DNA of 64,000 nt from Candidatus Saccharimonadota bacterium (GCA_013815775.1 JACDFN010000001.1:241858-305857), one strand, 5' to 3'. Shown: positions 20,774 to 36,423, counted from the first letter of the stretch. Notes: generated from the letters alone by a model not told the origin. Program-made: numbers and translations.

Positions 20774-20985
20774 ATATCTGGAACTATTTAACTATCGGAA
20801 GCGTAGTGCTACTTGTGATTTTAATACTTATACAAACGCGGGGGGCTAGTCTAGGTGCCGGGCTGGGTGGGGGCAGTGAAGTTAATACCGTTCGCCGCGG
20901 CTCTGACAAAACTCTGCACCAGCTTACGATTATTCTAGTCTTTATATTTGGTGGAAGTATAATTATGACTCTACTCGTACAGTAG
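20770..20985 (+). CDS. secG: preprotein translocase subunit SecG
   Basis: 71 aa, two TM helices and a glycine-rich loop (SLGAGLGGGS), LHQLT motif. Confidence 0.7.
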   Translation: MNIWNYLTIGSVVLLVILILIQTRGASLGAGLGGGSEVNTVRRGSDKTLHQLTIILVFIFGGSIIMTLLVQ

Positions 20986-21003
20986 CGATGGGCTGACTAA
21001 ACA

Positions 21004-22794
21004 ATGTTAGAAGTTGATGAAAAAACAAAAAAACGTGTCAAAAGGGGTATATTGCGGCGGCGTAAAAATGCTGTAACTCTAGGTGGGCGTGCCGATTTAC
21101 AAATAGAACAGTTATTAATTAGGCGGTTTGAGAGGTTAATTTCGGTCAGGCGCTTTATTTTTTTATGGGTATCGTTGTTTATTATATTGATCTTTCTTGG
21201 GGCCTATCAGCTTAGAGATCTGTCTACTTACTACCAATCGCAGCAGCCGATTCCAGGCGGCATATACCACGAAGGCATAGTTGGCACCTTTACTAACTCA
21301 AATCCGCTTTTTGCTGCCGGTACGGCCAATACCGCTGTTAGCAGGCTAGTATTTTCCGGCCTTTTTAAGTACAACGTCAACAATAAACTCGTAGGAGATT
21401 TAGCCACTGGGTGGAATTTAAATGAACAACAAACTACCTATATCGTGGGCTTAAAAAACGACATCACTTGGCAAGATGGTACTAAGTTTACGGCTGATGA
21501 CGTTGTTTTTACATATAAAGCTATCCAAGATCCAGAAACTCAATCCGTCCTTTACGCTAACTGGAAAGATATAAAAGTTACAAAATTAAACGACTTTGCT
21601 GTTATTTTTGAGCTGCCAAACAGCCTCAGTTCTTTTCCGTATGCCCTAACTGATGGAATTATTCCCAACCATCTCCTAAAAGATACTCCCCACACCCAAC
21701 TTCGAAGTGCTACTTTTAACGCATCGCCAGTGGGCACCGGGCCATTTGAATGGCGGTTTGTGGAAACTATAGGCACCGGTACACCCCAACGCGAGCAGCG
21801 TATCAGTCTTACGCCCTTTGAGAAGTATTGGGAGGGTCGCCCAAAACTCAATGGCTTCAATCTATTAGCATTTACAGATGAACAATACTTACTGGCCGCT
21901 TTTAAAAAGAAACAGCTCAATGCCATGAGCGGCCTGGAAAACTTGCCGAAAGACCTGGCTAAGGATAGCAGCATTAAAACCTATAACACTCCCTTAACTA
22001 GCACCATTATGGCTTTTTTCAATAATTCCAAGCCAATCTATGATGATGTAAATGTCCGTAAAGCCCTTGTTGCCGGAGTTGAAAGAAATAAGGTCATCGA
22101 ACTTTTCTCTTTTCCTGTAAAGCTGGCAAATAGCCCTCTGTTGCCGGCTCAACTTGGTTATGACCCGACCCTAACTCAGATACCTTACAATTTCGATCAA
22201 GCCAATAAACTTTTAGATACTGCTGGCTGGGTTAAGGATGAGAACGGCCAGCGCCAAAAGAATGGCAAACCTCTAGTTATTAACATGAGAGCCCAAGAAA
22301 CGCAGGAGTACACAAAAGTAGCTGATTTTCTGCAACGAGAATGGCAAAAGCTAGGGGCTAAGGTAGCTATCCAGTATCACACCAGCGAAGATCTACAGTC
22401 GTTAGTTATTGCCAATCATGAATACGAGGTATTGCTGTACGGAATTAGCTTAGGGGTAGATCCAGATGTGTACGCCTACTGGGACAGCTCACAGGCCAGC
22501 GTGGGCTCTCAAGGACGTCTTAACCTAAGCGAATACAAGTCGGCAGCTGCCGACCAAGCTATTGAGTCTGCTCGCACCCGGGCAGACCAGGCAACCCGCA
22601 CCATAAAATACAAAGCCTTTTTAACAGAATGGGTGAAAGATGCTCCGGCGCTTGCTCTCTATCAGCCCAATTCTCTATACGTAGCCAGAAATGTGGTGTT
22701 TAATTACGAGCGAAAGTCCAGTAACAGCTCTGCCGACCGTTTTTATAACGTACACCAATGGATGATCCGCCAACAAAAACAAAAAATCCTCTAA
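21004..22794 (+). CDS. ABC transporter substrate-binding protein, family 5 (OppA/DppA-like), membrane-anchored
   Basis: N-terminal TM anchor then SBP_bac_5-like sequence (FTNSNPLFAAGTANT...DITWQDGTKFTADDVVFTY). Confidence 0.8.
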   Translation: MLEVDEKTKKRVKRGILRRRKNAVTLGGRADLQIEQLLIRRFERLISVRRFIFLWVSLFIILIFLGAYQLRDLSTYYQSQQPIPGGIYHEGIVGTFTNSNPLFAAGTANTAVSRLVFSGLFKYNVNNKLVGDLATGWNLNEQQTTYIVGLKNDITWQDGTKFTADDVVFTYKAIQDPETQSVLYANWKDIKVTKLNDFAVIFELPNSLSSFPYALTDGIIPNHLLKDTPHTQLRSATFNASPVGTGPFEWRFVETIGTGTPQREQRISLTPFEKYWEGRPKLNGFNLLAFTDEQYLLAAFKKKQLNAMSGLENLPKDLAKDSSIKTYNTPLTSTIMAFFNNSKPIYDDVNVRKALVAGVERNKVIELFSFPVKLANSPLLPAQLGYDPTLTQIPYNFDQANKLLDTAGWVKDENGQRQKNGKPLVINMRAQETQEYTKVADFLQREWQKLGAKVAIQYHTSEDLQSLVIANHEYEVLLYGISLGVDPDVYAYWDSSQASVGSQGRLNLSEYKSAAADQAIESARTRADQATRTIKYKAFLTEWVKDAPALALYQPNSLYVARNVVFNYERKSSNSSADRFYNVHQWMIRQQKQKIL

Positions 22795-22877
22795 TTTAAC
22801 ACGTACATCTTGGCTAGTCCTCTCTTCCCACCCGATTCAAGTGGGGATACTTGAATCGGAAGGAGCAAAGCCGACTA

Positions 22878-22926
22878 AAAAGAAAAGAACTAAAACTCGT
22901 GCCGTTGCTTAAGTTTTAGTTCTTTC
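22878..22926 (-). terminator. intrinsic terminator of the minus-strand tRNA-Cys/tRNA-Leu pair
   Basis: 14-bp perfect stem (aaagaactaaaact / agttttagttcttt) followed on the minus strand by TCTTTTT, 20 nt beyond the tRNA-Leu 3' end. Confidence 0.55.
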
Positions 22927-22945
22927 TACAAAGTCGAGCTTTGCG

Positions 22946-23029
22946 ATGGTGGGCGAGGTGGGATTCGAACCCACAACCCGTAAGGGCACGGATTTTAAGT
23001 CCGCTATGTAAACCATTCCATCACTCGCC
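22946..23029 (-). tRNA. tRNA-Leu(UAA), type II, CCA encoded
   Basis: Manual fold: 7-bp acceptor GGGCGAG/CTCGCCC, anticodon loop CUUAAAA, long variable arm, canonical T-arm GTGGG-TTCGAAT-CCCAC, ACCA 3' end. Confidence 0.85.
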
Positions 23030-23103
23030 CTGGAGGCGCGTACGAGCTTCGCACTCGTGTAAAAGGTTTTGCAGACCTTTGCCTAACTCCTCGGCCAACG
23101 CGC
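23030..23103 (-). tRNA. tRNA-Cys(GCA)-like with noncanonical T-loop (TGCGAAG); its CCA abuts the first nucleotide of tRNA-Leu
   Basis: Manual fold: acceptor GGCGCGT/ACGCGCC, discriminator U73 (a Cys identity element) and encoded CCA. Anticodon stem AAGGT/ACCTT with loop CUGCAAA (U33, GCA, A37). T-stem ACGAG/CTCGT but T-loop has G at position 55. Confidence 0.5.
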
Positions 23104-23222
23104 CTTAGTCTTACCCCTCACAATTATACAAGATTAGGTCGCTTTAGTAGTTGCAAGATTGCCAAATAAGCGTTATTGTTTAATCACTAGCAATTAACAT
23201 GGGTGGGTAACAGGAGGGAAGT

Positions 23223-23357
23223 ATGGACTGGACTTGGAGCTCACCTATCGCTTTTGGTCTCTTCTTGCTGATGGCCGGCGGAGCACTCGTACTGCTTGGC
23301 TTGGCAATTAGCCTAGCGGCCGGTAGTTCGCCGCTGCCAGCAAAGCGACGACGCTAA
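23223..23357 (+). CDS. unannotated 44-aa small hydrophobic (single-TM) protein
   Basis: ATG preceded by AGGAGGG; sequence MDWTWSSPIAFGLFLLMAGGALVLLGLAISLAAGSSPLPAKRRR. Followed by an intrinsic terminator. Below the track size cutoff. Confidence 0.4.
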   Translation: MDWTWSSPIAFGLFLLMAGGALVLLGLAISLAAGSSPLPAKRRR

Positions 23358-23374
23358 AGAGATTTCTCACAAAA

Positions 23375-23411
23375 AGCCCTAGGTAAATTACCCAGGGCTT
23401 TTTTGTATTTT
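23375..23411. terminator. bidirectional rho-independent terminator
   Basis: agccctagg-taaatta-cccagggct stem-loop flanked by T-runs on both strands. It sits between the small plus-strand ORF and the minus-strand ORF 23424..23648. Confidence 0.55.
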
Positions 23412-23423
23412 AATGAGGGTGAA

Positions 23424-23648
23424 TTAATTAAGTGGTAATCTCGGGCTGAAGCCTAAAAGATTCGCCTCGGCGGTTGCCATATTTGCTAGATTTTGTAGCA
23501 AAGCAACGTCTTGGTGTTCCTCTGGCGTAAGTTTAGAGGGGTCAATATTAGCGTTGATGACTGCCTCTGCCGCCCGGCTACGAAGCTCATGTAATTTATC
23601 ACCCGTCGGTTCATCTTCTGCTGATCCTAGTTTTTCTATATCTGGCAT
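23424..23648 (-). CDS. small acidic hypothetical protein (74 aa from MPDIEKL...)
   Basis: Start chosen at the ATG preceded by AAGAGGA. The track's longer N-terminus is encoded by the 57-bp repeat read in reverse. Confidence 0.5.
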   Translation of the reverse strand: MPDIEKLGSAEDEPTGDKLHELRSRAAEAVINANIDPSKLTPEEHQDVALLQNLANMATAEANLLGFSPRLPLN

Positions 23649-23669
23649 GTTGAAATTCCTCTTCTTATA

Positions 23670-23726
23670 ACATACTAACAAAACTATTGATAAACTGGCC
23701 ATGTGTTGGCGCTAATAAACCTTTGC
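23670..23726 (+). repeat. 57-bp direct repeat, copy 1 (left flank of the abrB-ABC cassette)
   Basis: 48/57 identity with 27499..27555, including a perfectly conserved 25-mer acatactaacaaaactattgataaa. Confidence 0.6.
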
Positions 23727-23794
23727 GGGGTGGACTTATACAATGAAAGTTCAAACTCATTTCATTTCAAGAAGCCGAAAAGGGCCAACGGGTA

Positions 23795-23836
23795 TTGACA
23801 CGGAAACAAATCATACTTATCATACTAATATGATAA
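23795..23836 (+). promoter_or_regulatory. sigma70-like promoter (TTGACA-17-TATCAT) with an overlapping 8-4-8 palindromic operator TTATCATA-ctaa-TATGATAA
   Basis: Read directly from the sequence upstream of the AbrB-like gene. The perfect inverted repeat overlaps the -10 box. Confidence 0.5.
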
Positions 23837-23861
23837 TGTAACAAACCAGGAGTTTTGGAAT

Positions 23862-24101
23862 ATGGATAGTTTTAAGTTTTATGGTTCTGCCACAGTAGGC
23901 ACCAAGGGCCAAATTGTAATCCCAGCAGAGGCTCGTGACGAGCTAAATTTTAAAGAGGGCGACAAAGTGGTCATTATGAAGTCTCCTATGCACGATGGTC
24001 TTATGATGCTTAAAGCCGAAGTATTTGAGCAACATCTGAATCAAATGCAACATGGTATTGAACATCATCGTCAAAAAATGGCCGATAAGGAAAATAACTA
24101 A
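23862..24101 (+). CDS. AbrB/MazE/SpoVT-family DNA-binding protein (swapped-hairpin), putative autoregulator or antitoxin-like
   Basis: N-terminus KGQIVIPAEARDELNFKEGDKVVI matches the SpoVT/AbrB looped-hinge helix domain. Confidence 0.7.
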   Translation: MDSFKFYGSATVGTKGQIVIPAEARDELNFKEGDKVVIMKSPMHDGLMMLKAEVFEQHLNQMQHGIEHHRQKMADKENN

Positions 24102-24110
24102 AAGGAGTTT

Positions 24111-24272
24111 ATGATGCAGAACAAAGTGACAAAGCCGAAGAACCGCAAAAAAATAATTATCGTGTTGATTATTATCGCCTTAGTTGTAGGCGGTATTATC
24201 TATGCAGCAACAAAAGCTTCTGATTTTAAACCGCCATCACATAGTGATTTTCGTAATCAGCATGGCGGGTAG
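24111..24272 (+). CDS. unannotated 53-aa single-TM peptide
   Basis: AAGGAG SD, then ATGATG; MMQNKVTKPKNRKKIIIVLIIIALVVGGIIYAATKASDFKPPSHSDFRNQHGG. Sits between the AbrB-like gene and the ABC ATPase. Confidence 0.4.
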   Translation: MMQNKVTKPKNRKKIIIVLIIIALVVGGIIYAATKASDFKPPSHSDFRNQHGG

Positions 24273-24325
24273 AACGAGTAATAAACAGTTCAAAATTAAC
24301 TGAGAAACTGGAGGTTCAATAATCT

Positions 24326-25033
24326 ATGGTTAATAATCCTAACAAAATCCTAGCAGTCCAGCTACGTGGAGTGGTAAAGGCGTACCAGGTGAGTGCAGGA
24401 AAGTTTACCGCCATCCACCATATAGACCTAGATATCGTGCAGGGTGAATTTGTCGCCATTGTCGGTCAATCCGGCAGTGGCAAGACCACGTTATTAAATC
24501 TCCTTGCTGGAATTGATCGTCCAACGAGTGGCGAGGTACTGGTTGCAGACACGAGTCTGGGCAAGCTCTCAGAGTCGGACTTAGCTGAGTGGCGTGGCAA
24601 GCATGTGGGGCTAGTGTTTCAGTTTTTCCAACTATTACCAACACTGACGGTCGTAGAAAATGTACAATTGCCAATGGACTTTGCTAAAAACATACCGACT
24701 GCCCTGCGCCGAACACGAGCACTTGCACTGCTTGATAGGGTTGGCATAAAAGATCAGGCAAACAAGTTGCCTGCCATGCTTTCGGGGGGTCAGCAACAGC
24801 GAGCAGCCATAGCACGGGCTTTGGCAAACGACCCACCTATTTTGCTCTGCGACGAGCCAACCGGCAATCTTGATTCGGCGAATCGGCTATCGGTTCTTAA
24901 ATTGTTTGCCGACCTAAACGCCGAAGGGCGAACTATTGTCATGGTAACTCATGAACGGGATGCTTCGTCCTTCACCAGCCGACAAGTAACGCTGGTTGAT
25001 GGCCGTGTTGCCATTCCAGCCGGAAGGAGTTAG
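24326..25033 (+). CDS. ABC transporter ATP-binding protein (MacB/LolD/FtsE-like)
   Basis: Walker [16 protein letters not shown] signature [15 protein letters not shown], Walker B ILLCDEPT. Confidence 0.9.
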
Positions 25034-25038
25034 TAAAA

Positions 25039-27492
25039 ATGACAAAGCTACTCCTCATCAAGTTAGTTCGGGATATGCGGACAACCTGGGGGCGAATGGT
25101 GATGATGATCTTCGCTATCAGCCTCAGCCTCATTGCCTTTAGTACTATGTTGCAAGCGCGCACTCTCGTGCAGTCTAATATGACGAGCGGTTATCTCAGC
25201 ACCAATCCTGCTTCGGCTAGAATCACTATTAATCCAGGCGTTGCTCCTGAAAAAATTGAATCCACCCTCAATCTAGCCAAGTCAGAGCCAGGCATTATTG
25301 ATGCCGCTATGCGCTCGGTGCTTAGTCTCAAGATCCAAAAAGACGGCAGCGAATCGGCCACGCTCCAAATGTTTGTCGCCTCACCCGATGATCCAATGCG
25401 TATCGCGACGTTCAAAACCGAACGAGGTAATTGGCCTCCTCCTAAGGACGGTATCTTACTAGAGAAATCTACGCTTGAGGCTATGAAACTAAAGGTCGGC
25501 GAGAGTCTAACTGTCCTCGGTTCCAATGATAAACCGGTGCAACTAAAGATTACTGGCAGCGCTCGTGACCAAAGCCTTTCACCTGCCAGTCAAGACACTG
25601 GATACGGCCACATTTCAACAAATATCTTGCCACTTCTTGGCAAAGAACCTACTCTTAATCAACTAGCAATTACTGTGGCTGACAAGCCAGGCCAGACCGA
25701 ACCTAGCCATAACCGTGACGTAATCGTGCGCACGGCACTTAGTCTCGCCGACCGGCTAAAGCAGGACCCGGGTGTGAGCATTGAGCAGATAGCGGTTCCG
25801 CCGCCCTACGAACACCCACACCAGCAAATAGCCAACGCGCTATTAACGGCACTACTGGCTTTCGGTGCCTTGTCACTCCTTTTGAGTGCCGTTCTGATTG
25901 CCACTATGTTTAACGGATTGCTAACGCAGCACATACCGCAAATCGGCATCATGAAGGCGATTGGTGCTCGTTCGAATCGAATCCTACAATTCTATTTGAT
26001 TATGATTCTTTTGGTGTCAGCGATAGCTACAACTCTGGCCTTTGTGCCTGGTATTGTGCTCGGCCGAGCACTGGCTGATTTGTTACTTAAGGGCGCTTTA
26101 AATATAGATGTTACAAGCCTGTCGGTGCCATTATGGGTATATGCCGTGACTGGTATTGTGGGTATCGGTGTGCCACTGCTGCTAGCACTCATACCACTTG
26201 TGCGGGCTAGTCGTAAAACGGTACGAGAGGCACTTGATGAGCGTGGTGCCACTGATCGCCCGGGACGCTTTACAAAGCGTTTGTATAGCTGGCTTGGCAA
26301 ACTTCGTGGCGTAGATATAACTCTTTTGATGGCTTTTCGTAATATTTTCCGGCGCCAAGCGCGGTTTCTGCTATCAGTCGGGCTGCTGGCAACGGCCGGA
26401 GCGATATTTGTCGGCGGATTAAACCTAAGGGCAGGTTTCCAAGCTATTCCGAAAACAATTACAGACCAGAATAGTTGGGATGTCGGTGTAAGACTAAGAG
26501 AACCAGCTGTTGCCAAACAAGTTACGGATATCGTCGGAAATGTTCCTGGCGTTACAGGTGTTGAAACCTGGAATACTATATCCACGAACATCCAATATCC
26601 AGGGAAAGTCGATGTCACTCGCACTTATCCCGATCAAGGTCACGGTTCATTAAACCTCACTGCCATTCCTGAGGTAACATCAGTATTCAACCCACCTAAG
26701 ATAATTGAGGGGCGATGGCTTGCTGCGGGCGATACCGATGCGATTGTTCTCCCGCAATCTATACGAAAATCATTGCCTGATATGAAAGTCGGCGACAGCG
26801 TCCAATTGCCGATAGATGATGTTCTTACTGATTGGCTTGTCGTAGGCATAGCGCAGGATCTAGCTGGTGGGGCCTGTCCTTGCGTATCGCAAGTAGGTTT
26901 TGAGCAAGCCTCGGGCCAGCAAGGTCATGTTAACCTAATCCGAATTGTGACCGATCGCCATGACAAACAGGCGCGCATTGCTGCTGGACAAGCAGCCACC
27001 GAGGCGCTGGGTCTAGGGCAGATCAAAGCCCAGAGCGCCATGCCGATTGATGCTCTGGTCGACTCTGCAGAAGGTCATTCAAACGTGCTTATAATTCTGA
27101 TCATGTTTATCGCTGCCTCAATCGGTATAGTTGGATTGATCGGGCTGGGTTCCACTATGAGCACAAATGTAATTGAGCGCACCCGTGAATTCGGTGTGAT
27201 GAACGCCATAGGAGCGCCTGCCGGAGTTGTGCGCCGTTTGGTGGTTTACGAAGGTGTTTTTATAGCAGTTGTAAGCTGCGTTGTTGCTATTGTTCCCACT
27301 CTGCTAATCACACTAGTCATGGGGACAGGACTTGGCAATTTGTTCTTTAGTGCGCCCGTACCGTTTCATGTTTCCTTGTGGGCAATCATCATTTGGATTG
27401 CCGTGGTTACGATTGGTGCGACGCTGGCTACCCTGGCACCAGCCTACAGAGCAGCCCGTCTGACCGTTCGCGAAGCACTGGCATACTTATGA
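25039..27492 (+). CDS. ABC transporter permease, FtsX/MacB family, duplicated module (817 aa, ~10 TM, two large extracytoplasmic domains)
   Basis: Two FtsX-like 4-TM blocks, each preceded by a large loop; follows the ATPase with a 5-nt gap. Confidence 0.85.
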   Translation: MTKLLLIKLVRDMRTTWGRMVMMIFAISLSLIAFSTMLQARTLVQSNMTSGYLSTNPASARITINPGVAPEKIESTLNLAKSEPGIIDAAMRSVLSLKIQKDGSESATLQMFVASPDDPMRIATFKTERGNWPPPKDGILLEKSTLEAMKLKVGESLTVLGSNDKPVQLKITGSARDQSLSPASQDTGYGHISTNILPLLGKEPTLNQLAITVADKPGQTEPSHNRDVIVRTALSLADRLKQDPGVSIEQIAVPPPYEHPHQQIANALLTALLAFGALSLLLSAVLIATMFNGLLTQHIPQIGIMKAIGARSNRILQFYLIMILLVSAIATTLAFVPGIVLGRALADLLLKGALNIDVTSLSVPLWVYAVTGIVGIGVPLLLALIPLVRASRKTVREALDERGATDRPGRFTKRLYSWLGKLRGVDITLLMAFRNIFRRQARFLLSVGLLATAGAIFVGGLNLRAGFQAIPKTITDQNSWDVGVRLREPAVAKQVTDIVGNVPGVTGVETWNTISTNIQYPGKVDVTRTYPDQGHGSLNLTAIPEVTSVFNPPKIIEGRWLAAGDTDAIVLPQSIRKSLPDMKVGDSVQLPIDDVLTDWLVVGIAQDLAGGACPCVSQVGFEQASGQQGHVNLIRIVTDRHDKQARIAAGQAATEALGLGQIKAQSAMPIDALVDSAEGHSNVLIILIMFIAASIGIVGLIGLGSTMSTNVIERTREFGVMNAIGAPAGVVRRLVVYEGVFIAVVSCVVAIVPTLLITLVMGTGLGNLFFSAPVPFHVSLWAIIIWIAVVTIGATLATLAPAYRAARLTVREALAYL

Positions 27493-27498
27493 TAGAGG

Positions 27499-27555
27499 AC
27501 ATACTAACAAAACTATTGATAAATTTGCCTTATGTTGCCGCTAATGAGTCTTTGC
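27499..27555 (+). repeat. 57-bp direct repeat, copy 2 (right flank of the abrB-ABC cassette)
   Basis: See copy 1. Begins 7 nt after the permease stop codon. Confidence 0.6.
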
Positions 27556-27620
27556 TTGTGCGCCGTTAGCTACGAAAGTAAAATTTTACTCCTATAGTCT
27601 AAGCCAAAATAGCACCTAGC

Positions 27621-28148
27621 TTAAGATGAGAGTTCGGCAAGCAACTTATTCGCTCTTCTAATGACGGAGTTTGATTTGTGTTTTTGCTGTACGTTGAGTA
27701 ATGAAACTGTATCTTTCTGTGGGACAGAACCGTCTTTCGTAAATTGTACTAATGTTTGCATTGCATTTGCTGCGACGATCCAGTCAACATCTGTATTAGA
27801 CAGCAAATGCTTAAGCCAGTTTATCGCATTGAGTTTCTGTTCTGGACTTAAGCTGACCTGACTATATATCTGAGCCAAATGCCACTGTATTGATGGTTGA
27901 CCGTTTGAACCCAATTCGACTTGAAATTTATCTACGTACGGCAGTAGCCAATCGGGGTGCTGACGACAGATTTTTTCTAATGCGTCTACGGCACGCATTC
28001 TTATCCATGCGTCCTCATTAAATACGCAACTATATAGTTCGTCGAGTTGGTTTTTGTTATTTAATACTTGTTCAATAACTTCATTCGTCCTACCAAGGGA
28101 ATTGGACTTACCCCCGACTGTAAGTATTTCTGCGTAGCTTTCTGTCAT
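27621..28148 (-). CDS. hypothetical alpha-helical protein (possible HEAT-like / DNA-alkylation-repair-like repeat protein)
   Basis: 175 aa, all-helical composition. The WIRMRAVDAL motif is reminiscent of AlkD-like HEAT repeats; that assignment is weak. Confidence 0.5.
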   Translation of the reverse strand: MTESYAEILTVGGKSNSLGRTNEVIEQVLNNKNQLDELYSCVFNEDAWIRMRAVDALEKICRQHPDWLLPYVDKFQVELGSNGQPSIQWHLAQIYSQVSLSPEQKLNAINWLKHLLSNTDVDWIVAANAMQTLVQFTKDGSVPQKDTVSLLNVQQKHKSNSVIRRANKLLAELSS

Positions 28149-28162
28149 ACTCTAACAATAAC

Positions 28163-28190
28163 AAAAGAGACGGTTTTAGCCGTCTCTTTT
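28163..28190 (-). terminator. intrinsic-terminator-like hairpin 15 nt upstream of the 27621..28148 start codon (candidate attenuator)
   Basis: 11-bp perfect stem aaaagagacgg/ccgtctctttt, followed on the minus strand by GUUAUUGUU, then AGAGU and ATG. Confidence 0.45.
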
Positions 28191-28196
28191 GGTTCA

Positions 28197-28298
28197 TCTG
28201 TGGTGCGGGATAGTTGACGCATTTCAAACATCGGCTATCATTGCCGATAACGATTATAAACTAAAGCATTTGGTTGAGGTATTCAACTTATCAGGCAG
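28197..28298 (-). repeat. conserved ~100-nt leader element, copy A (two conserved blocks around a variable hairpin)
   Basis: Aligns with 31046..31146: a 36-nt block at 33/36 identity, a 19-nt nonconserved insert, then a 47-nt block at ~41/47 identity. Both copies lie directly 5' of minus-strand genes. Confidence 0.55.
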
Positions 28299-28354
28299 CT
28301 TGCTTGATGCTTAATTGAATGACTTGAATAAGTCTTTTAGAAAAATATCTACGG

Positions 28355-28918
28355 TTATAGCTGGGCTTTGGGAATTAACAGGCCCGACGACACTATACGC
28401 CTGTTTATTCCTCTAATTGACCACGCTATCAAAATAATTCCTAAAATATTCGCTCCAGTTGCCAGCAGTTGAGTAGCCGCAAACCGCTCGGCACTAAAAT
28501 AAGCTCCTGAGCCAGCTAGAGCTGTAACAAGTGGAGCCACTATAGAAGTTCCACATGATACGCAGTGCGAACCTACCATAGCCACTAGAGCACCGCTATT
28601 ACTCTTAACTGCTCCTAGGCGTTGCTTACTTGACCGCCACATGAACACTAGTAACATTAAGTTAATGGCCAGCAATAAAGAAAATACAAGCCTCGATAGA
28701 TTAACTGGATTACCTATATTGAAGAAGGTAATGTAGGTATCAAAAATAAAACCGAATTTACCTACAGTCGTAAGACTGGGCGAACTTAAAATGTATGCCA
28801 GCAGGTTTATATTTACTAACCATAAGAAAATACTAATAGCGATGAACCAAAACAGCAGAAAATATCTAAAATAAGGTCGTCGCTTAAGAATCTGTTTGGC
28901 GACATTGTATGATTGCAT
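28355..28918 (-). CDS. hypothetical polytopic membrane protein with a single CxxC motif (GSHCVSCG)
   Basis: 187 aa with 4-5 predicted TM helices. Only two Cys, arranged CxxC near a TM boundary. Confidence 0.55.
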   Translation of the reverse strand: MQSYNVAKQILKRRPYFRYFLLFWFIAISIFLWLVNINLLAYILSSPSLTTVGKFGFIFDTYITFFNIGNPVNLSRLVFSLLLAINLMLLVFMWRSSKQRLGAVKSNSGALVAMVGSHCVSCGTSIVAPLVTALAGSGAYFSAERFAATQLLATGANILGIILIAWSIRGINRRIVSSGLLIPKAQL

Positions 28919-28929
28919 GGTTTTTTGCG

Positions 28930-29082
28930 TTATGCCTGTTTTTGACTTTCAACTGCCAGCTTAGTAATTTCCAAATTACAGCTTTTGTATTTATTGCACC
29001 AAGCCTCGCACTTTTTAGCAATCTCTTCGTCATAGTAATAAAGCCCGCATTCTGGGCATTGAAATATCTTCTGCTCGCTCAC
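28930..29082 (-). CDS. unannotated 50-aa zinc-ribbon-like protein (CxxC-x17-CxxxC), GTGA-coupled to the upstream reductase
   Basis: VSEQKIFQCPECGLYYYDEEIAKKCEAWCNKYKSCNLEITKLAVESQKQA. GTG start overlaps the TGA stop of 29079..30419; GAGGT lies 7 nt upstream. Confidence 0.45.
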   Translation of the reverse strand: MSEQKIFQCPECGLYYYDEEIAKKCEAWCNKYKSCNLEITKLAVESQKQA

Positions 29083-30419
29083 AGCATATACCTCGCATCG
29101 TCACTAGGCGAAGGAAAGGCGTAAATTGGGGTTTGGAACTGTTCGGCTGTCAGTCCGGCTTCAATAGCCAGGGCAAACATATTTATCAGGTCTTCGGCAT
29201 GATTGCCGATTATATGAGCACCCATAATTTTGTTGGTTTGCTTGTCGACTAACGTTTTAGCCATCGTGTGCTTAAGGTTTGTCCGTTTTGCATCAAACCA
29301 GCCAGACATATCTTTCGTGTGCACTCGGACATCAATACCTTTATCTTTAGCTTCCTGTTCAGTCAAACCTACCTTTGCAAGAGGCGGCTCTGTAAATACA
29401 ACACTAGGAGTTGAGCGATAGTCGGGCTGCCTTGTCTTCTTGCCAAGTAAGTTATCGGCCACAATTGTGCCGTGCAGCCGTGCTACAGGCGAAAGCGGCG
29501 GTCCAGCGGCTACTGCATCACCGCCTGCATAGACACGAGAATTAGATACACTTTGCAAATACTCATTCACCACTACGCCACGCTGTTCATATTCAATGTT
29601 GGCTGCTTCTAGGTTGAGGGTATCAATGGCAGGTGGGCGGCCAGCTCCGTGTACCGCTAAGTCGGCATTGTATTGTTGGCCGTCAGCAGCGTGAATAACT
29701 AAAGCTCCTCCGATTTTTTCTATCTTGGTAGCAGAGGCATCCAGTATTACATCAACACCAGCTTCCTGCGACGCCGCTACCAAAGTCTTAACTGTATCGG
29801 GGTCAAATATCGGCAGCGGTTTGTTGTCATTGTGCAAAATCATTACTTTTGCCCCGAAGCGAGCTGCAACATGTGCTAACTCAAAAGAAACATAACCACC
29901 GCCCACAAAGACAATACGTTTTGGCAGCTGTGTTAAATTCAAAAAACCATCGCTGGTTATAAGGTGTTCAGCTCCTTCTATGTTCAGTTTGGCTGGTTTC
30001 GCTCCCGTTGCAATGTGAAAGTGCTCGGCAGTTAGCTGCTCGCCGTTAATTTCAAGCGTATTTTCGTTAATAAACTTTGGCGAGCCTTCATATAATTCAA
30101 CACCAGCTTTTTGAAGTGGCTCCTTTGTTTCAGCCGATACATGGTTAGTAAAGGTTGCCTTGAACTTGATTAAAGCTGCCCAGTCTAGCTCAGCAGGCTT
30201 GGTTACTATTCCTAAGTCTTGTAATCGTCTGTTCAAGTCAGACATTTCGGCGGCACCAACCAGAACCTTCTTTGGTATACAGCCACGATTATCACAAGTG
30301 CCGCCCCAGATTTTATTTTCCTCAACAACCGCTACTTTCCAGCCAGCTTCAGCACAACGTGTAGCCACATGGTAACCAGCACCACCACTACCTAAAACTA
30401 CAAGGTCATATTTATGCAT
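29079..30419 (-). CDS. class-I pyridine nucleotide-disulfide oxidoreductase (glutathione reductase / dihydrolipoamide dehydrogenase family flavoprotein)
   Basis: FAD-binding GSGGAG, redox-active disulfide GGTCDNRGCIPKK, NAD(P) site GGGYVSFE. C-terminus reads YAFPSPSDD where the family usually has HPT.SE. Confidence 0.85.
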   Translation of the reverse strand: MHKYDLVVLGSGGAGYHVATRCAEAGWKVAVVEENKIWGGTCDNRGCIPKKVLVGAAEMSDLNRRLQDLGIVTKPAELDWAALIKFKATFTNHVSAETKEPLQKAGVELYEGSPKFINENTLEINGEQLTAEHFHIATGAKPAKLNIEGAEHLITSDGFLNLTQLPKRIVFVGGGYVSFELAHVAARFGAKVMILHNDNKPLPIFDPDTVKTLVAASQEAGVDVILDASATKIEKIGGALVIHAADGQQYNADLAVHGAGRPPAIDTLNLEAANIEYEQRGVVVNEYLQSVSNSRVYAGGDAVAAGPPLSPVARLHGTIVADNLLGKKTRQPDYRSTPSVVFTEPPLAKVGLTEQEAKDKGIDVRVHTKDMSGWFDAKRTNLKHTMAKTLVDKQTNKIMGAHIIGNHAEDLINMFALAIEAGLTAEQFQTPIYAFPSPSDDARYML

Positions 30420-30420
30420 A

Positions 30421-30621
30421 CTAATTCTCCTTTTCGTTTATACTTTGCCGTGCTAATTCATACTCGATACGCTTACCAAAGCCTTTGGCCGAATATAGCA
30501 TCAGCCCAATGCCGATGACATTACTCCATGAAACATTATCATTTCTACTTGCCCAGATTAAATAAATTGCGATAGCGAGCGTTACTTTCGAGTTGCTCAT
30601 GATGGTGCTTAATTTACTCAT
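30421..30621 (-). CDS. small hypothetical membrane protein (66 aa from MSKLST...)
   Basis: The track ORF is trimmed to the first ATG after the upstream ORF stop. It is hydrophobic. Confidence 0.3.
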   Translation of the reverse strand: MSKLSTIMSNSKVTLAIAIYLIWASRNDNVSWSNVIGIGLMLYSAKGFGKRIEYELARQSINEKEN

Positions 30622-30644
30622 TTGAAATAATTTTAATATGAATA

Positions 30645-31022
30645 CTAGTGTGTTTTTAGCCTCAGTAAGTGGTAACCAAAGCCACTGACAAGTACGAGGT
30701 GTAGGGCAACAATCAGTAAGCCCCGCACATTCAGTACGCCACCTATAACTCCAAAGATACTTACCAGTAAAGCAATACACAGGGTTGAGAAGTTGCCGAT
30801 GATAGTTGCCCGCATAACCATGAAGTGGTCATAGTGGGCTGTGTACCAGTTTAAGTAAGAATAACCCACTAAAGACGACCCTAGAAAACGAACAAAAATC
30901 GCTCCTTCGTGCATAGAATGAGTTAAAAATATATTTGCTACTGTAAGGGGCAAGAACAATAGCGCAGCCCCAATAAGTGCGGTGGCTATAGTTGTCATAC
31001 GTAGGAATAATTTTACTGACAT
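30645..31022 (-). CDS. hypothetical 4-TM membrane protein
   Basis: 125 aa, four hydrophobic helices. Preceded by leader-element copy B. Confidence 0.55.
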   Translation of the reverse strand: MSVKLFLRMTTIATALIGAALLFLPLTVANIFLTHSMHEGAIFVRFLGSSLVGYSYLNWYTAHYDHFMVMRATIIGNFSTLCIALLVSIFGVIGGVLNVRGLLIVALHLVLVSGFGYHLLRLKTH

Positions 31023-31045
31023 TATTTTGAGCTTACGTTAAGAAA

Positions 31046-31146
31046 CTGATGGTGCAGGATAGTTGACGTATTTCAAACATCTGCAACAGCTGCTACAAAT
31101 GATTATAAACTAAAACACTTGGCTGAGGTATTCAATTTGTCAGCTA
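31046..31146 (-). repeat. conserved ~100-nt leader element, copy B
   Basis: See copy A. Confidence 0.55.
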
Positions 31147-31227
31147 GTTTCATAACAGAGTAGCTTATTTTTTAACTTGGCAAGGTCATAGCTTAACACT
31201 TTTGGATGTATGGAGTTTTGTATGTAG

Positions 31228-31650
31228 TCATGTTGTTTCTTCTTTTGGGGTATTATGAAAAGCCTTGTTAGTCAACGATAAGTAAACTGTTCCTAGGAAA
31301 ACTGCAAGACCACTCAAAATCCACTCATGATACGATAGGTTGTCTAGAAACACATGCCCTAGAAATACATTCATCCAAGGCTGGTGTGGAGAACCTGCTT
31401 GGTAAAGATAGTCTGGTAGCATTGCGTATTGGTGCAAAGTAAATGCCCAGAAAATAAAGTTACGTGACGGCCGTTTTTGAAGACTCAGGGTTATAAAAAT
31501 TAATAATGCAGCGTTTACTCCGGCCAAACTGTGCAAGAAAAAATGGATGACGGCATCATGAGCTTTGTACTGAGAGAACAAGAATAACTCCACAAAAGCA
31601 ACTCCAATGATTAGGATGTGTTTTAGCTTAGTGTGACTTCTCATTTTCAT
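31228..31650 (-). CDS. hypothetical membrane protein
   Basis: 140 aa with several TM helices. Confidence 0.55.
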   Translation of the reverse strand: MKMRSHTKLKHILIIGVAFVELFLFSQYKAHDAVIHFFLHSLAGVNAALLIFITLSLQKRPSRNFIFWAFTLHQYAMLPDYLYQAGSPHQPWMNVFLGHVFLDNLSYHEWILSGLAVFLGTVYLSLTNKAFHNTPKEETT

Positions 31651-31762
31651 AAGAGCCTTTATCTTTCCCCGAGTGTCCTTTCATCATCACAAACATCATG
31701 ATGCCCATTGCTATAGGGCAGGCTAAAGCTAGTATTAGTAAAATCAGCGAACTTTTTTCCAC
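31628..31762 (-). CDS. possible 44-aa Met/His-rich single-TM peptide (GTG start)
   Basis: GGAGG SD 6 nt before GTG; VEKSSLILLILALACPIAMGIMMFVMMKGHSGKDKGSYENEKSH. Overlaps the start of the downstream membrane-protein ORF in another frame. Confidence 0.25.
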   Translation of the reverse strand: MEKSSLILLILALACPIAMGIMMFVMMKGHSGKDKGSYENEKSH

Positions 31763-32619
31763 GTCCCACCTCCATCGGTAGTTTTGTGTACCACTAAGCT
31801 ACGGTTTATCAGATAGATAGTAGACGGATTTTGAGGGTCGTAGGCAACCTGCATAACCATACTGTCTTCGTAACTAAGTTTATTCCAAGTAATACTTCCA
31901 TCCTTACTCACCACTAAGCCTTGCCCGTCGGTGTAAGCGATTATCTCTTTATCGCTTTTGGGATTCACAGCCAGTGCCATTACTGCGCCTTTCAGATTCA
32001 AGGCTGACCATGTACTGCCTTGATTACTGCTGACAAATAAACCATTAGTCGTTCCAGCGTACACAGTGTCCTGATTAGAAGGACTAGTGGCAAGTATAAT
32101 CACATTACTTATCGTGTTGGGTAGCAGTTTCCAGTTTTTACCTTCATCATCACTTTTTTGTAGCTGTCCTCGGTATGAGCCATAAATAATGCTTGGATTA
32201 GCCTGACTTACTGTCATTGTATGAAAGTCCACTGGGCCATTGACGCCGTCTGATACTTTTTGCCAAGACTTTCCGCCGTCGGTAGATTTTTGAAAACCGA
32301 TGTTACCGCCAGTACTAGGGTGTCCACTACTGTAGAAAGTATTAGGGTCACTAGTGTGAGCCGAAAAGCCCATGTAATCGTCTCTTGCCGTGCCGACATT
32401 TAGCAGTTCGCTGTCATTGCTCATAACCAATAAGCCCTTATGAGTGGCAATGTACACTTTTGTGGGATCTTTGCGGTCAACTGAAAGGCCGTGAGCGTCT
32501 TGAAGACTGCTAACCGTGCCGGACTCATTCATGCTACTTTCTTCTGATGTTTTAGAGAGTAGCAAGAATGCAGAAAGCAAGACGACTCCTATACCAAGCA
32601 CTGTGACAAATCTCTTCAT
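31744..32619 (-). CDS. secreted BNR/Asp-box repeat beta-propeller protein (Ycf48/sialidase-like fold)
   Basis: Signal peptide and repeated S-x-D-x-G-x-T/S-W motifs (STDGGKSW, SNQGSTW, SKDGSITW, TTDGGGTW). Confidence 0.7.
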   Translation of the reverse strand: MKRFVTVLGIGVVLLSAFLLLSKTSEESSMNESGTVSSLQDAHGLSVDRKDPTKVYIATHKGLLVMSNDSELLNVGTARDDYMGFSAHTSDPNTFYSSGHPSTGGNIGFQKSTDGGKSWQKVSDGVNGPVDFHTMTVSQANPSIIYGSYRGQLQKSDDEGKNWKLLPNTISNVIILATSPSNQDTVYAGTTNGLFVSSNQGSTWSALNLKGAVMALAVNPKSDKEIIAYTDGQGLVVSKDGSITWNKLSYEDSMVMQVAYDPQNPSTIYLINRSLVVHKTTDGGGTWKKVR

Positions 32620-32669
32620 CTGTTGAAAATGTTAGAAGGCATACTGTTTGAAAAACGTTTGGGTTGAAA

Positions 32670-32746
32670 TGGTGCGGGTGAGGGGACTCTAACCCCTGGC
32701 CTCTTCCTTGGCAAGGAAGCGCTCTAAACAACTGAGCTACACCCGC
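32670..32746 (-). tRNA. tRNA-Gly(GCC) with an unusual D-loop lacking GG and a T-loop TTAGAGT (possible U19:A56 instead of G19:C56)
   Basis: Manual fold: acceptor GCGGGTG/CACCCGC, anticodon stem CTTCC/GGAAG with loop UUGCCAA, T-stem AGGGG/CCCCT, ACCA end. Confidence 0.75.
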
Positions 32747-32886
32747 GCGGGTGATGAGACAAACCTACGGTTTTTCTCATCGCTCGTCGGCAAAGCCGAG
32801 CCTAAAGGCCAAGCTCGCTGCTCTTTTCCCTCAGCGATAGCCGACTGAACACCGTAAATTGTAGCAAATACCCCTGTTAAAAGCAA

Positions 32887-32912
32887 AGCGCGCGACGGTC
32901 GCGTCGCGCGCT
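32887..32912 (-). terminator. GC-rich hairpin terminator after the 32935..33330 gene
   Basis: agcgcgcgac-ggtcgc-gtcgcgcgct, followed on the minus strand by UUGCUUUU. Confidence 0.5.
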
Positions 32913-32934
32913 TGTTGCTTGTTACAGCCTATAC

Positions 32935-33330
32935 TTAGTTAGCAGGACTAAATGCTGCCGTGCAGAGTTCAGGAATATTAATTCCATCTTGCTGGAATTG
33001 TCCGACTGAACGACCCCTGGTGGGATTGTCTGGATCAGTAGGGTTATTGACGAATGGTCCAGGCGATTGAGTCGGTACCACATTTCCACCTTTAGTACCG
33101 GGCACCTGCTCAGCGGGGCCGCCGGGCGCTCCGTTAGCCATGTTAGGCTCATTGCCGTAGACGATATCGGATATACAATTGCCAACGGTTGGACCACTCT
33201 GCGCATTGCCCGAGGCTAGAACTGGCATTGCTACTCCTGCTAGAAGCACCACGCTGGCTAGACCGGTTGTGATAAATCGCTTAACTTTAGATTTTTCAAG
33301 TTCAATACCATTGTTTAGTTGATATTTCAT
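32935..33330 (-). CDS. small secreted Pro/Gly-rich protein
   Basis: Signal peptide (GLASVVLLAGVAMPVLASG), two Cys, low-complexity P/G/N-rich body. Confidence 0.55.
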   Translation of the reverse strand: MKYQLNNGIELEKSKVKRFITTGLASVVLLAGVAMPVLASGNAQSGPTVGNCISDIVYGNEPNMANGAPGGPAEQVPGTKGGNVVPTQSPGPFVNNPTDPDNPTRGRSVGQFQQDGINIPELCTAAFSPAN

Positions 33331-33513
33331 AGACCCTCCTTTAGTTACAAAGCTTGAGTTTACATATCGTTAAGACGTATTCATGTAAAAATTCTTACTG
33401 CAGTATCGACATAGGCTTTTAAAGCAAAGTGGCGCAGGCTTTATGCCTACGCCTCTTCACTTTTTGTTTGCTTTTATTGTAACGTACTTTAACCGTTAGC
33501 TTTATTTTTAATG

Positions 33514-34746
33514 TTAATTACTTTGATGACCATGGTCGTGGCCAGGGTGGCCGTGCAATTGATGGTTGAAGTAGCTAACGCACTGACCTTGGTTTTTGAA
33601 TGGATTACCCTCGTTGTCTGTTAGGTTCATCCACCCATGTTTTTTACAATCATCCTTAGATGAAGGTTCATTCGTCAGCTCAAAGTCGTATGTAGTTGCA
33701 ACGTCGGCCGCATTTATGACTACATTATCAAAGTAGCCAGCTAAGCCCGTGTCGCTAGCGGAAGTATCTCCAACGTTTAGAGCGATAAAGTCTACAGTGC
33801 TGCCTGCAGGCATCCCGCTAAGTGTAGCTGGGCAAGAGAATGTATCTGGGCGGTCAGCAATCGCGCTCGGTGCATCGGTTGAATTAAATGTAGCTGTTGT
33901 GAAATTTGTTGCAGATCCTGTTGCTGGGACATAGTCGTATCTACAGTCATAGTAATTTGTTGAGCCTGCAAGTTTTGTGTAGACGTTTAAGTAAAATTGA
34001 TCTGCGTCAGCAACAGTACCATTGCCCGCAATCAGGAAATCGTAAGCTACTGATTCAAACGTAGACACAGGTGTTCCGAGAGTTTTAGCGGCTATGAATT
34101 TGTGTGCCGCTGTTGATCCAATCGGCTGTACGTATAGGCTACCGTCTCCAATACTGTATTGATTTTCCGTAAAATTGTACGGCGTAGCATTTGTGGGATC
34201 AGGATTAAATACCCAGCCTTGTGTGTTTGCCGCAGTCACCACTTTAGTATTGGTAGTAGAAGCCGTGCCTGATGTAGTTGCCCATGTGCCGCCTCTACTG
34301 CCTATGCCATCAGGATAATTGTCAGTCCATGTGCCGCTCATGGTTCCACTAGGTGCTACATTTCCCGCCATATTCATATGAGTACTGTCTGCACCTAATG
34401 AATAGTTAACGCTCGTAGTGACCGCATTGCCGCTAACATTGCCCGTGCCGCTCCATTCAAAAGTATGAGAGCCGCCAGCCGGGTAGCCGCCGGCTATATT
34501 GAAGCTACCTGCGCTGTCTTGGCTGGAGATTGTAGCATCATGAGTATATGTACCGCTACAGCCGCTTGTACAGGTAAAAGCTATTTCATATGAGCCGTTT
34601 AAATTCCAGGGAGTTGCAGCTGACGCTCCACCCGCAGTAACAAACATGACTGCCGGTAATGCGAGAGCTACCAGCGCCATTAAAGTTTTTGATAAGTCTA
34701 GTTTTGATCTAATTTTCCTCACACCCTTATAAATTTCATATTGCAC
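33514..34746 (-). CDS. secreted hypothetical protein, Ser/Thr/Gly-rich with a His-rich C-terminus (HGHPGHDHGH)
   Basis: Long n-region signal peptide. Start reassigned to the GTG that has GGAGG 5 nt upstream. Confidence 0.6.
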   Translation of the reverse strand: MQYEIYKGVRKIRSKLDLSKTLMALVALALPAVMFVTAGGASAATPWNLNGSYEIAFTCTSGCSGTYTHDATISSQDSAGSFNIAGGYPAGGSHTFEWSGTGNVSGNAVTTSVNYSLGADSTHMNMAGNVAPSGTMSGTWTDNYPDGIGSRGGTWATTSGTASTTNTKVVTAANTQGWVFNPDPTNATPYNFTENQYSIGDGSLYVQPIGSTAAHKFIAAKTLGTPVSTFESVAYDFLIAGNGTVADADQFYLNVYTKLAGSTNYYDCRYDYVPATGSATNFTTATFNSTDAPSAIADRPDTFSCPATLSGMPAGSTVDFIALNVGDTSASDTGLAGYFDNVVINAADVATTYDFELTNEPSSKDDCKKHGWMNLTDNEGNPFKNQGQCVSYFNHQLHGHPGHDHGHQSN

Positions 34747-34894
34747 AAGCACCTCCTTATTTAACTTAAACAGTATAGTATCATAAATTTGACAATAAAA
34801 ACAGCAATGGCTTGCTGTGGATAACTCGGTACTTAATATTAAATTCGTTACAACACTGAAGTGGCCTAAAAACCAAAGTCATAATAAGGAAGAT

Positions 34895-34924
34895 GGCCCA
34901 AGAACGCTGGTGCGTTCTTGGGCC
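34895..34924 (-). terminator. GC-rich perfect hairpin (13-bp stem, 4-nt loop) plus U-tract terminating the high-GC gene
   Basis: ggcccaagaacgc-tggt-gcgttcttgggcc, followed on the minus strand by a U-rich tract (UUCCUUAUUAUGACUUUGGUUUUU). Confidence 0.55.
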
Positions 34925-35001
34925 GAAGCCCGGGCAAGGCTGTTGGGCTCCTTGTTTAGCGCATACAAAACCTTGCCCGGACTATCAGCCATCGTTCGGT
35001 G

Positions 35002-35394
35002 CTACGCGAGGACCAGCTCGCGCTGCTTGGTGGTCCCGAACTGGACCGGCTGGAGATTCTCGCCGAAGACCTCCTTCAGCGACGGCAGCACGATGTCCTC
35101 CTCGACCGTCGTCCAGTCGGCAGTCGGGGCCTTGTAGACCTTGACCGACTCGGGCCGGAAAGTGATCCGCGAGATCGACTTCTCGAAGCCCTTACCCATG
35201 ATCCGGTCGGCGATCTGCTTGCCGATTGGGCTGAGGCCCTCGAACTGAGCCCCCGAGTCGTACATGGGATGCCAGAACGGCTGGTACGGCTGTCCCGATG
35301 CGGTGAGCTTGATCCCATCACCTTCGAGGTGGTACTCCCGAGCGCTCTCGGTGGACGTCGGGCGAACGATGACCTGCTTGGCTTGCGGGTTCAT
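35002..35394 (-). CDS. hypothetical 130-aa protein encoded in a ~62% GC island with very high GC3, actinobacterial-like codon usage (putative horizontally acquired gene)
   Basis: AAGGAGAAGC-ATG RBS and a non-repetitive protein sequence (MNPQAKQVIVRPTSTESAREYHLEGDGIKL...). Overlapping plus-strand ORFs are R/L/D-rich antisense shadows. Confidence 0.6.
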   Translation of the reverse strand: MNPQAKQVIVRPTSTESAREYHLEGDGIKLTASGQPYQPFWHPMYDSGAQFEGLSPIGKQIADRIMGKGFEKSISRITFRPESVKVYKAPTADWTTVEEDIVLPSLKEVFGENLQPVQFGTTKQRELVLA

Positions 35395-35695
35395 GCTTCT
35401 CCTTTTAAGTCTTTGAATGAACGATGACTTGCGTGTAGTAGCAGCAACTTTAAGCTGCTTAGCTCTTAAACCTCCTTTTTGGTAGGGAACTAGCTACTAC
35501 AACCCCCACCCTTAGTGAGAGTCATTCTTCATTTTGGATATGTTTAATAAAATTTGCAGTAAAAATTCACTCTGGAAGTATATTGATTGTGTGTTCGGGT
35601 AAGTCTTGTTTCTACAAAAACACCCTAAGTTTTAGCATACTGTGAGAATTGTTGCTAAGTAACACCTTATATAATAAAATTATCATGCTAAGCTT

Positions 35696-35771
35696 GGCTC
35701 TTTAGCTCAGTTGGTAGAGCAGAGGCTTGAAGAGCCTTGTGTCCCCAGTTCGAGTCTGGGAGGAGCCACCA
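35696..35771 (+). tRNA. tRNA-Phe(GAA)
   Basis: Manual fold: canonical D-arm GCTCAGTTGGTAGAGC, anticodon loop UUGAAGA, T-arm CCCAG-TTCGAGT-CTGGG, CCA encoded. Confidence 0.85.
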
Positions 35772-35916
35772 GTTTAAGTCGTGACTTCGGCTTTCGTACT
35801 TTACTATAAAGTAAAGTAGTTTCAGCCTTCGCACGCCTTTACGCTTAACAATTTTACAAAAACCTGCACTGCGTGATTTTGCAAAATTGAAAAAGATTAA
35901 GTATCAGCATAAAATC

Positions 35917-36001: not shown

Positions 36002-36006
36002 GGAAA

Positions 36007-36421: not shown

Positions 36422-36423
36422 AA

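Follow-up and report, generated by a model that had tools for sequence, protein, structure and literature searches.

A 57-nt direct repeat pair brackets an exporter cassette

We analyzed a 64,000-nucleotide (nt) stretch of the genome of a Candidatus Saccharimonadota bacterium (GCA_013815775.1, JACDFN010000001.1:241858-305857; hereafter the window). In this window, a pair of 57-nt direct repeats, R57-A (left copy, 23670-23726) and R57-B (right copy, 27499-27555), brackets a plus-strand cassette encoding an AbrB-like regulator, a small membrane peptide, and a MacB-type ATP-binding cassette (ABC) exporter. Insertion of the cassette is most likely, and no related genome was found that would prove it. 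In the specific reading that we tentatively favor, at a little under even confidence, the repeat pair is the scar of a module that recombined into the 5' flank of a small acidic gene, with duplication of the junction sequence. R57-B fills the gap between two independent ends of homology, that of the exporter module (27499) and that of the flank of the next gene (approximately 27559), and we count this for the scar.

A repeat search of the window showed that the two copies are spaced 3829 nt apart and are identical at 49 of 57 positions (86%). The original prediction, made from the sequence alone, had recognized the pair, and its identity of 84% is corrected here. The leftmost 25 nt (23670-23694 and 27499-27523) form a perfect 25-mer, ACATACTAACAAAACTATTGATAAA, as predicted, and the remaining 32 nt are 75% identical. 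All eight mismatches fall at positions 26-51 and none inside the 25-mer. A clean run of at least 25 nt at one end has a probability of P=0.013, which was also counted for the scar. The diverged right 32 nt were significant on their own (score 28 versus 10±1.9; 0 of 2000 shuffles). The edges of the repeats were sharp, since the flanks aligned like shuffled sequences (right p=0.79, left p=0.14). A longer duplication masked by drift was rejected because the flanks had no similarity.

With up to three mismatches tolerated, the window contained two occurrences of the 25-mer and no more, whereas the expected number was 0 (100 shuffles). An nhmmer profile of both copies, which gave E-values of approximately 1e-16 to 1e-17, detected no third copy in the 64-kb window (next match E=5). 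Chance similarity or an assembly artefact is a next to negligible explanation for the pair. It has nothing in its favor beyond the source being a metagenome-assembled genome, whereas the shuffles and the nhmmer E-values contradict chance. Three public contigs carrying these genes showed identical gene order and arrangement, making an assembly artefact unlikely, and an exact repeat of 25 nt should not confuse assemblers working with longer k-mers.

Neither copy showed hairpin potential on either strand (DNA folding z from -0.82 to +0.46), and R57 had no Rfam match at the gathering threshold or at E≤1. Because hairpin, Rfam match, and additional copies were all absent, R57 cannot be classed as an attC site or terminator, nor as a common motif. 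This was counted for the scar, as was the finding of a real, sharply bounded repeat in two copies. The 25-mer had 0 matches in the JGI metagenome contigs and IMG/VR, and the intergenic R57 region had no match in PLSDB. A common regulatory motif, which the original prediction had named as the finding that would speak against it, was thus not what the searches revealed. R57 resembles the integron attC site ("59-base element") in being a repeat of about 57 nt at gene-module junctions. However, it lacks the imperfect-palindrome hairpin, the R'/R'' core motifs, and IntI, it has two copies only, and the gene orientations are opposite. An attC or integron identity was rejected on the lack of folding and of IntI. 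Identity with dif or with an integrative mobile element exploiting Xer (IMEX) was rejected because there was no terminus skew switch and the 25-mer has no dif-type palindromic arms; the cumulative GC skew rises through the 64 kb, with a local dip only at 28-39 kb.

R57-A forms the 5' flank of the minus-strand acidic gene (23424-23648), with 21 nt between it and the ATG, and it lies 68 nt upstream of the -35 element of the AbrB operon promoter. R57-B begins 6 nt past the permease stop codon and ends 65 nt before the stop codon of a minus-strand HEAT-repeat-like gene (27621-28148). Both placements agree with the original prediction. Its further proposal of a promoter (TTATCA/TATAAG) within copy A is doubtful, because transcription would start inside the Shine-Dalgarno sequence. 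R57-A was the only homologue of R57-B. The possibility that R57 is a decayed small-peptide gene, like the gene found 3' of the permease in several relatives, was rejected because the alignments were shuffle-like.

Gene content and predicted regulation of the cassette

The genes between the repeats run on the plus strand, opposing their minus-strand neighbors, and this orientation was counted for the scar. The first gene (23862-24101) encodes a 79-amino acid (aa) swapped-hairpin DNA-binding protein. Its domain scores exceed the curated cut-offs for the AbrB/MazE/SpoVT type (PF04014, 36.3 bits, cut-off 24.7; TIGR01439, 47.1 bits, cut-off 28.3), and no toxin partner gene adjoins it. It is followed by a gene for a 53-aa single-pass membrane peptide (24111-24272). 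The peptide is a conserved accessory of the module; its N-terminus is basic, it has a single hydrophobic helix, and its tail contains His and terminates in HGG. Next are a 235-aa ABC ATPase of the LolD/FtsE/MacB type (24326-25033; ABC_tran 125.8 bits) and an 817-aa permease with two FtsX domains (25039-27492; FtsX 89.9 bits in two stretches), corresponding to a fused MacB-type dimer. The best sequence matches of the permease among solved structures (PDB) were YtrF, MacB, and FtsX. The gene content thus agrees with the predicted regulator, membrane peptide, and MacB-type exporter, the latter comprising an ATPase and an FtsX-domain permease. The permease is not a member of the ADOP subfamily (TIGR03434, 88.1 bits versus a cut-off of 622.3). 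The cassette is similar to the MacB-type (type VII) ABC systems, which include MacB, LolCDE, FtsEX, YtrEF, and ADOP, in its LolD/FtsE-like ATPase and FtsX-domain permease, but differs in the fusion of both halves in one chain, the dedicated small membrane peptide, and the AbrB-type regulator.

Upstream of the regulator gene, a sigma-70-like sequence, TTGACA-17-TATCAT (23795-23823, plus strand), was the best promoter candidate of the region (11 of 12 matches). It is overlapped by a perfect palindrome, TTATCATA-CTAA-TATGATAA (23817-23836), and by a tandem ATCATACT repeat, and a similar promoter text precedes the AbrB gene of a related cassette (L009; related loci are given by their L numbers). 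The region 23795-23836 is probably the autoregulatory operator of the AbrB-like protein, and the cassette probably encodes an autorepressed MacB-type pump for efflux or extrusion.

The ATPase and permease genes were mildly atypical in GC content at third codon positions (+1.1 to +1.4 standard deviations, SD) and in codon choice (approximately -1.5 SD). The deviation was counted for the scar, and its mildness indicates that the acquisition was not recent. No recombinase or transposase was detected in the cassette, in the island, or in the tested open reading frames (ORFs) of the window (Pfam, NCBIfam, and PHROGs), consistent with the absence of an integrase noted in the original prediction. Precomputed Pfam tables for approximately 13.6-38 kb of the window likewise contained no recombinase. 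The cassette does not have the features of an insertion sequence (IS) or transposon, as there was no transposase and no inverted repeat pairing its ends. IS1634/IS1549-type elements generate unusually long and variable target duplications. They resemble the present case in the direct repeats of tens to hundreds of bases around the insert, but they carry a transposase and terminal inverted repeats, and the cassette has neither.

Related exporter modules are patchily distributed

More than 1000 homologues of the permease were found, the best of which was 74% identical, and approximately 120 clusters were at least 59% identical. Those named at 59-74% identity belong to Anaerolineales, Chloroflexi, and Devosia nitrariae. 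By comparison, the host SBP gene is 78% identical in the nearest relative. This similarity of the permease to distant phyla was counted for the scar.

Ten genomic contexts of related modules were read. The ATPase-permease pair was constant, and a small His-tailed membrane peptide always accompanied it. The peptide gene is located 3' of the permease gene in L007 (7216-7338), L009 (4786-4929), L013 (3303-3428), and L014 (2899-3021), encoding 40-47 aa, and 5' of the ATPase gene in L052 (2701-2856), the P0012 contig, and Devosia L053. Three of the tails end in HGG, two in PQH, and one in RRNH. The peptide might act as a subunit of the pump or be related to its substrate. Regulation differed among the contexts: L009-L012 have an AbrB-type regulator; L007, the P0012 contig, and Devosia have one of the TetR type; and L052 has a two-component system. 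Neighboring genes were never shared, and the GC content of the loci ranged from 0.43 to 0.64. A check named in the original prediction, for the cassette elsewhere with the same flanks, thus found none. The exchange of regulators, the shifting position of the peptide gene, and the unshared neighbors were all counted for the scar. To judge from these comparisons, the peptide-ATPase-permease core is a patchily distributed module that is mobile on an evolutionary scale.

The nearest relatives of the cassette differed part by part. ATPase identity was 70-84% over the related modules (78% to L052; 84% to L014, partial), and the permease was 74% identical to that of L013. The 53-aa peptide was 61% identical to the 51-aa peptide encoded upstream of the ATPase in L052, and the N-terminal domain of the AbrB-like protein was 59% identical to the regulator of the L009 cassette. 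At the DNA level, homology to related modules extended from 24102, just past the AbrB stop codon, to 27485-27499; in the case of L013, it stopped at 27499, the first base of R57-B. No R57-like sequence was present beside related cassettes in the loci examined, and the cassette was not found on plasmids or viral contigs (PLSDB, IMG/VR). A Pyr_redox gene lies beside the L009 cassette; its co-transfer with the cassette was rejected because identity was only 29%.

Two related modules bear on recombination, and both were counted for the scar. In L052, two large serine recombinase genes are located approximately 1 kb downstream of the module. In L007, the TetR-regulated module lies together with lipoprotein and FNR-like genes inside a direct repeat of about 155 nt with approximately 79% identity (2384-2545 and 8239-8394, 5.85 kb apart). 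The intact 3' end of a histidine kinase gene makes up the left copy, and a frame-broken, decayed fragment of it the right copy. Alternatively, this bracket may be a relic of rearrangement, because a kinase precedes the module in L052 too.

These loci also bear on the idea that the R57 copies are the attL and attR sites of an integrative element with the 25-mer as core, the integrase being lost or acting in trans. We regard this as improbable. Direct repeats whose arms have diverged beside a perfect core at one end fit such sites, as do the serine recombinase genes of L052 and the duplicated gene end bracketing the L007 module, and an identical core is present in the repeats at both ends. However, no recombinase gene was detected, be it in the cassette or island or among the window ORFs tested. 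The site is neither a tRNA gene nor a gene 3' end, the 25-mer lacks the dyad symmetry typical of tyrosine-recombinase core sites, and there were no matches in IMG/VR or PLSDB. Serine integrases leave a shared core of 2 bp and not a 57-nt repeat, which also speaks against this idea.

Cis-mobilizable elements (CIMEs) and genomic islets, known from work on integrative and conjugative elements (ICEs) and CIMEs of Streptococcus, have att-type direct repeats and lack an integrase. The cassette is CIME-like in that its cargo is enclosed by direct repeats, tens of bases long, that are imperfect but share an identical core, with no internal recombinase, in a variable zone near tRNA genes. It differs in that R57 is not in a tRNA gene or gene 3' end, the window has no cognate integrase or ICE, and no excised or empty form is documented.

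The cassette lies in a variable zone beside tRNA genes

The host lineage is barely sampled. Among the matches listed, Saccharibacteria-type homologues of the SBP gene other than the nearest were 57-68% identical. The closest relative, L049, aligned with the window at 20824-23408 with 72.9% identity and shares the order SecG, SBP, tRNA-Leu(taa), tRNA-Cys, a 44-aa ORF, and a terminator hairpin. The tRNA-Leu(taa) and tRNA-Cys(gca) genes (22947-23104, minus strand), which are also paired in L015, mark the edge of the variable zone. Backbone homology ends at the bidirectional terminator-like hairpin (23371-23408), and the variable zone begins at 23409. Past this point, L049 carries unrelated genes, including a RibD_C gene. 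The conserved backbone thus excludes the acidic gene, both R57 copies, the cassette, and everything to its right, including the HEAT-like gene. This divergence of L049 was counted for the scar.

The acidic gene encodes a protein of 74 aa. A word-indexed search matched only the protein itself; when 1.84 billion proteins were searched exhaustively with phmmer, 11 representatives were recovered. Eight small proteins were aligned (32-47% identical over the alignment) and share the core AEAVIxANxDPSxLTxEEH...EAN. Two longer proteins, of 1087 and 762 aa, matched in 9 and 10 separate stretches, suggesting that the motif is repeated in them. The acidic gene belongs to a real but rare small-protein family.

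The HEAT-like protein (175 aa) had 34 relatives in JGI contigs (L015-L048), with 40-80% identity and GC contents of 0.38-0.69, the closest being L015 (80%). None of the 34 had other window genes alongside, and the gene was not found in viral contigs. In L015, other genes lie between the HEAT-like gene and tRNA-Cys, which was also counted for the scar, and the HEAT-like gene is located approximately 1.5 kb from the tRNA-Cys/tRNA-Leu pair. The HEAT-like gene appears to be a patchily distributed single-gene module. The original prediction held that the genes flanking the cassette were former neighbors. This is not supported, because the backbone ends before the acidic gene and the HEAT-like gene occurs patchily at the other loci with no shared neighbors.

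The 3' flank of the HEAT-like gene (27559-27620; gene with flank, 27556-28148, minus strand) is kept in L017, and the homology stops at approximately 27559, three bases from the right edge of R57-B. There, the C-terminal end of an IS3/IS481-family transposase gene (L017 1148-1273; rve_2, 24.7 bits) abuts the flank. A single copy of R57 downstream of the HEAT-like gene in L017 was rejected, as the end of this transposase gene occupies the position.

A RibD_C gene, such as that of L049, adjoins the HEAT-like gene in L037 and L047. A 12-bp terminator-like hairpin (28162-28191, minus strand) lies 13 nt upstream of the HEAT-like ATG, and similar sequence text was present upstream of the homologues in L017 and L016. 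This hairpin may be an attenuator or a translational control element in the 5' leader.

In the more distant relatives L003 and L050, the SBP gene is followed directly by tRNA-Leu(cag) and a gene for a FAD-linked oxidase. The counterparts of these genes in the window are at 36424-38268, 14-15 kb away and in reversed orientation, and the 28-39 kb segment has a locally reversed GC skew and minus-strand genes. These arrangements suggest a rearrangement between the tRNA-Leu genes (22947-38268).

A second repeat pair and the regulatory alternative

A second intergenic direct repeat, R101 (28201-28301 and 31050-31150; 101 nt, 79% identical), lies approximately 650 nt from the R57 pair. It brackets four minus-strand genes (28355-31022), which encode a CxxC membrane protein, a zinc-ribbon peptide, a flavoprotein similar to glutathione and mercury reductases, and a membrane protein. 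Each copy of R101 lies just upstream of the start of a co-oriented gene, HEAT (28148) or TM125 (31022), and consists of two conserved blocks around a variable center. In L017, the sequence upstream of the HEAT homologue also retains the proximal block. R101 may be either another scar of this type or a copy of regulatory DNA.

R101 bears on an alternative in which R57 is itself duplicated cis-regulatory DNA, such as an operator or part of a promoter, kept at either end of the operon because a protein such as the AbrB-like repressor or a regulator of the acidic gene binds the 25-mer. We consider this unlikely. The limitation of the perfect block to 25 nt, with the rest drifted, speaks for it, and the 25-mer holds CATACTAA and TGATAA, both of which are also present in the operator palindrome region TTATCATACTAATATGATAA. 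The position of R101 upstream of two co-oriented genes, with partial conservation upstream of HEAT elsewhere, points the same way; if R101 is regulatory, R57 may be too. However, R57-B lies in the convergent gap between the permease and HEAT stop codons, with no gene to regulate on either strand. There were no further copies in the 64 kb and no similar sequence at related cassettes, and the similarity between R57 and the operator was not significant (score 16 versus 13.7±2.5, p=0.2). A direct identification of R57 as a copy of the AbrB operator was rejected, just an 8-mer being in common.

R101 is also relevant to a multi-step history, in which the 5' region of the acidic gene was duplicated locally, or copied by gene conversion, before and independently of the arrival of the cassette, giving the R57 copies, and the cassette later replaced the intervening DNA by illegitimate or double-crossover recombination. 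We judge this quite unlikely. The zone is a patchwork in which the HEAT-like gene, the cassette, and the acidic gene are each separately distributed, a second repeat lies nearby, and an IS occupies the equivalent junction in L017. The 14% divergence of the copies and the nearly ameliorated codon usage also point to an old history of several steps. On the other hand, more events would be needed than a single insertion, and this history leaves unexplained why cassette homology ends exactly at the left edge of R57-B and why R57-B is not accompanied by a remnant of duplicated coding sequence.

Proposed origin of the repeat pair

In the scar reading, an exporter module with its own promoter and operator would have entered the variable zone beside the tRNA-Leu and tRNA-Cys genes, at the 5' flank of the acidic gene. 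The likeliest route would be that a circular or tandem intermediate bearing a 57-nt segment joined a similar but diverged segment of the chromosome by one Campbell-type crossover, which the host homologous recombination system resolved within the 25-nt perfect block. A single crossover between diverged 57-nt partners would leave a perfect 25-mer followed by sequence of 75% identity; the diverged right 32 nt would represent differences between donor and recipient. Without a recombinase, the module would now be fixed cargo. The crossover, the direction of the event, and the function of the pump are inferences. Campbell integration likewise leaves the insert flanked by direct repeats of the homologous segment, and diverged partners cross in the longest identical stretch. 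However, it is usually documented for plasmids or experimental constructs with longer homology, whereas a donor circle, and a source for the 57-mer on it, are hypothetical here.

A number of observations weigh against the scar. The clustering of the mismatches is marginal, as a clean run of at least 25 nt anywhere in the repeat has P=0.058. The length of 57 nt far exceeds that of ordinary target-site duplications, and the target is neither a tRNA gene nor a conserved gene end. No recombinase or transposase accompanies the module, and the Campbell model needs incoming DNA already bearing a homologue of the 57-mer, the origin of which is unexplained. The homology break in L017 at approximately 27558 is an IS junction and is thus weaker evidence of a natural module boundary. 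The features of R101 suggest that duplicating 5' regulatory DNA is a habit of this island. As codon usage is nearly ameliorated, the event would be old and its traces may mislead.

Neither an empty site nor a circular junction nor presence/absence polymorphism came to light, the three public contigs being alike and the 25-mer being absent from the JGI metagenomes and IMG/VR, and this too counts against the scar. The entire region past 23408 is missing from the closest relative, L049, and anchoring on the SBP gene in GTDB genomes yielded one distant Saccharibacteria locus only, which was arranged differently. No empty site with a single 57-mer could be found because the lineage is almost unsampled. 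The original prediction read the pair as the footprint of insertion with target duplication or of site-specific integration. This is partly supported, by the behavior of the cassette as horizontally moving DNA in a variable zone and by the location of copy B between two homology breakpoints, but an insertion is unproven.

A broader and much more speculative idea, which we regard as a long shot, is that a recombinase-free process, perhaps linked to DNA uptake and host repair, enlarges the tRNA-adjacent zones of Saccharibacteria. Modules would be inserted in the 5' flanks of resident genes with 57-101 nt duplicated, so that R57 and R101 would be successive products and the flank would supply a promoter to a newcomer of the same orientation.

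If the scar is real, it would be a dated, base-resolved case of an ultra-small candidate phyla radiation (CPR) genome with few mobile-element genes gaining a self-regulated transporter from distant phyla, and such events could be traced by their long junction duplications. A widespread module also emerges from the analysis. It combines a double-FtsX permease and a LolD-like ATPase with a small His-tailed membrane peptide, and it is found with AbrB, TetR, or two-component regulators. Accessory gene clusters flanked by repeats are familiar from variable zones, so the significance is modest, though the host is unusual and poorly sampled. Only generic genomic-island papers surfaced in a literature search on Saccharibacteria islands with direct repeats.

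Other features of the window

A 28-nt palindromic motif with the core AATTACTTAAC-AAG-TTAAGTAATT occurs in five copies with 71-100% identity (753-780, 12535-12562, 43648-43675, 51178-51205, and 59038-59065). By their coordinates, most copies lie within or at the ends of long ORFs. A 412-aa ORF with no family match reads as a secreted surface protein.

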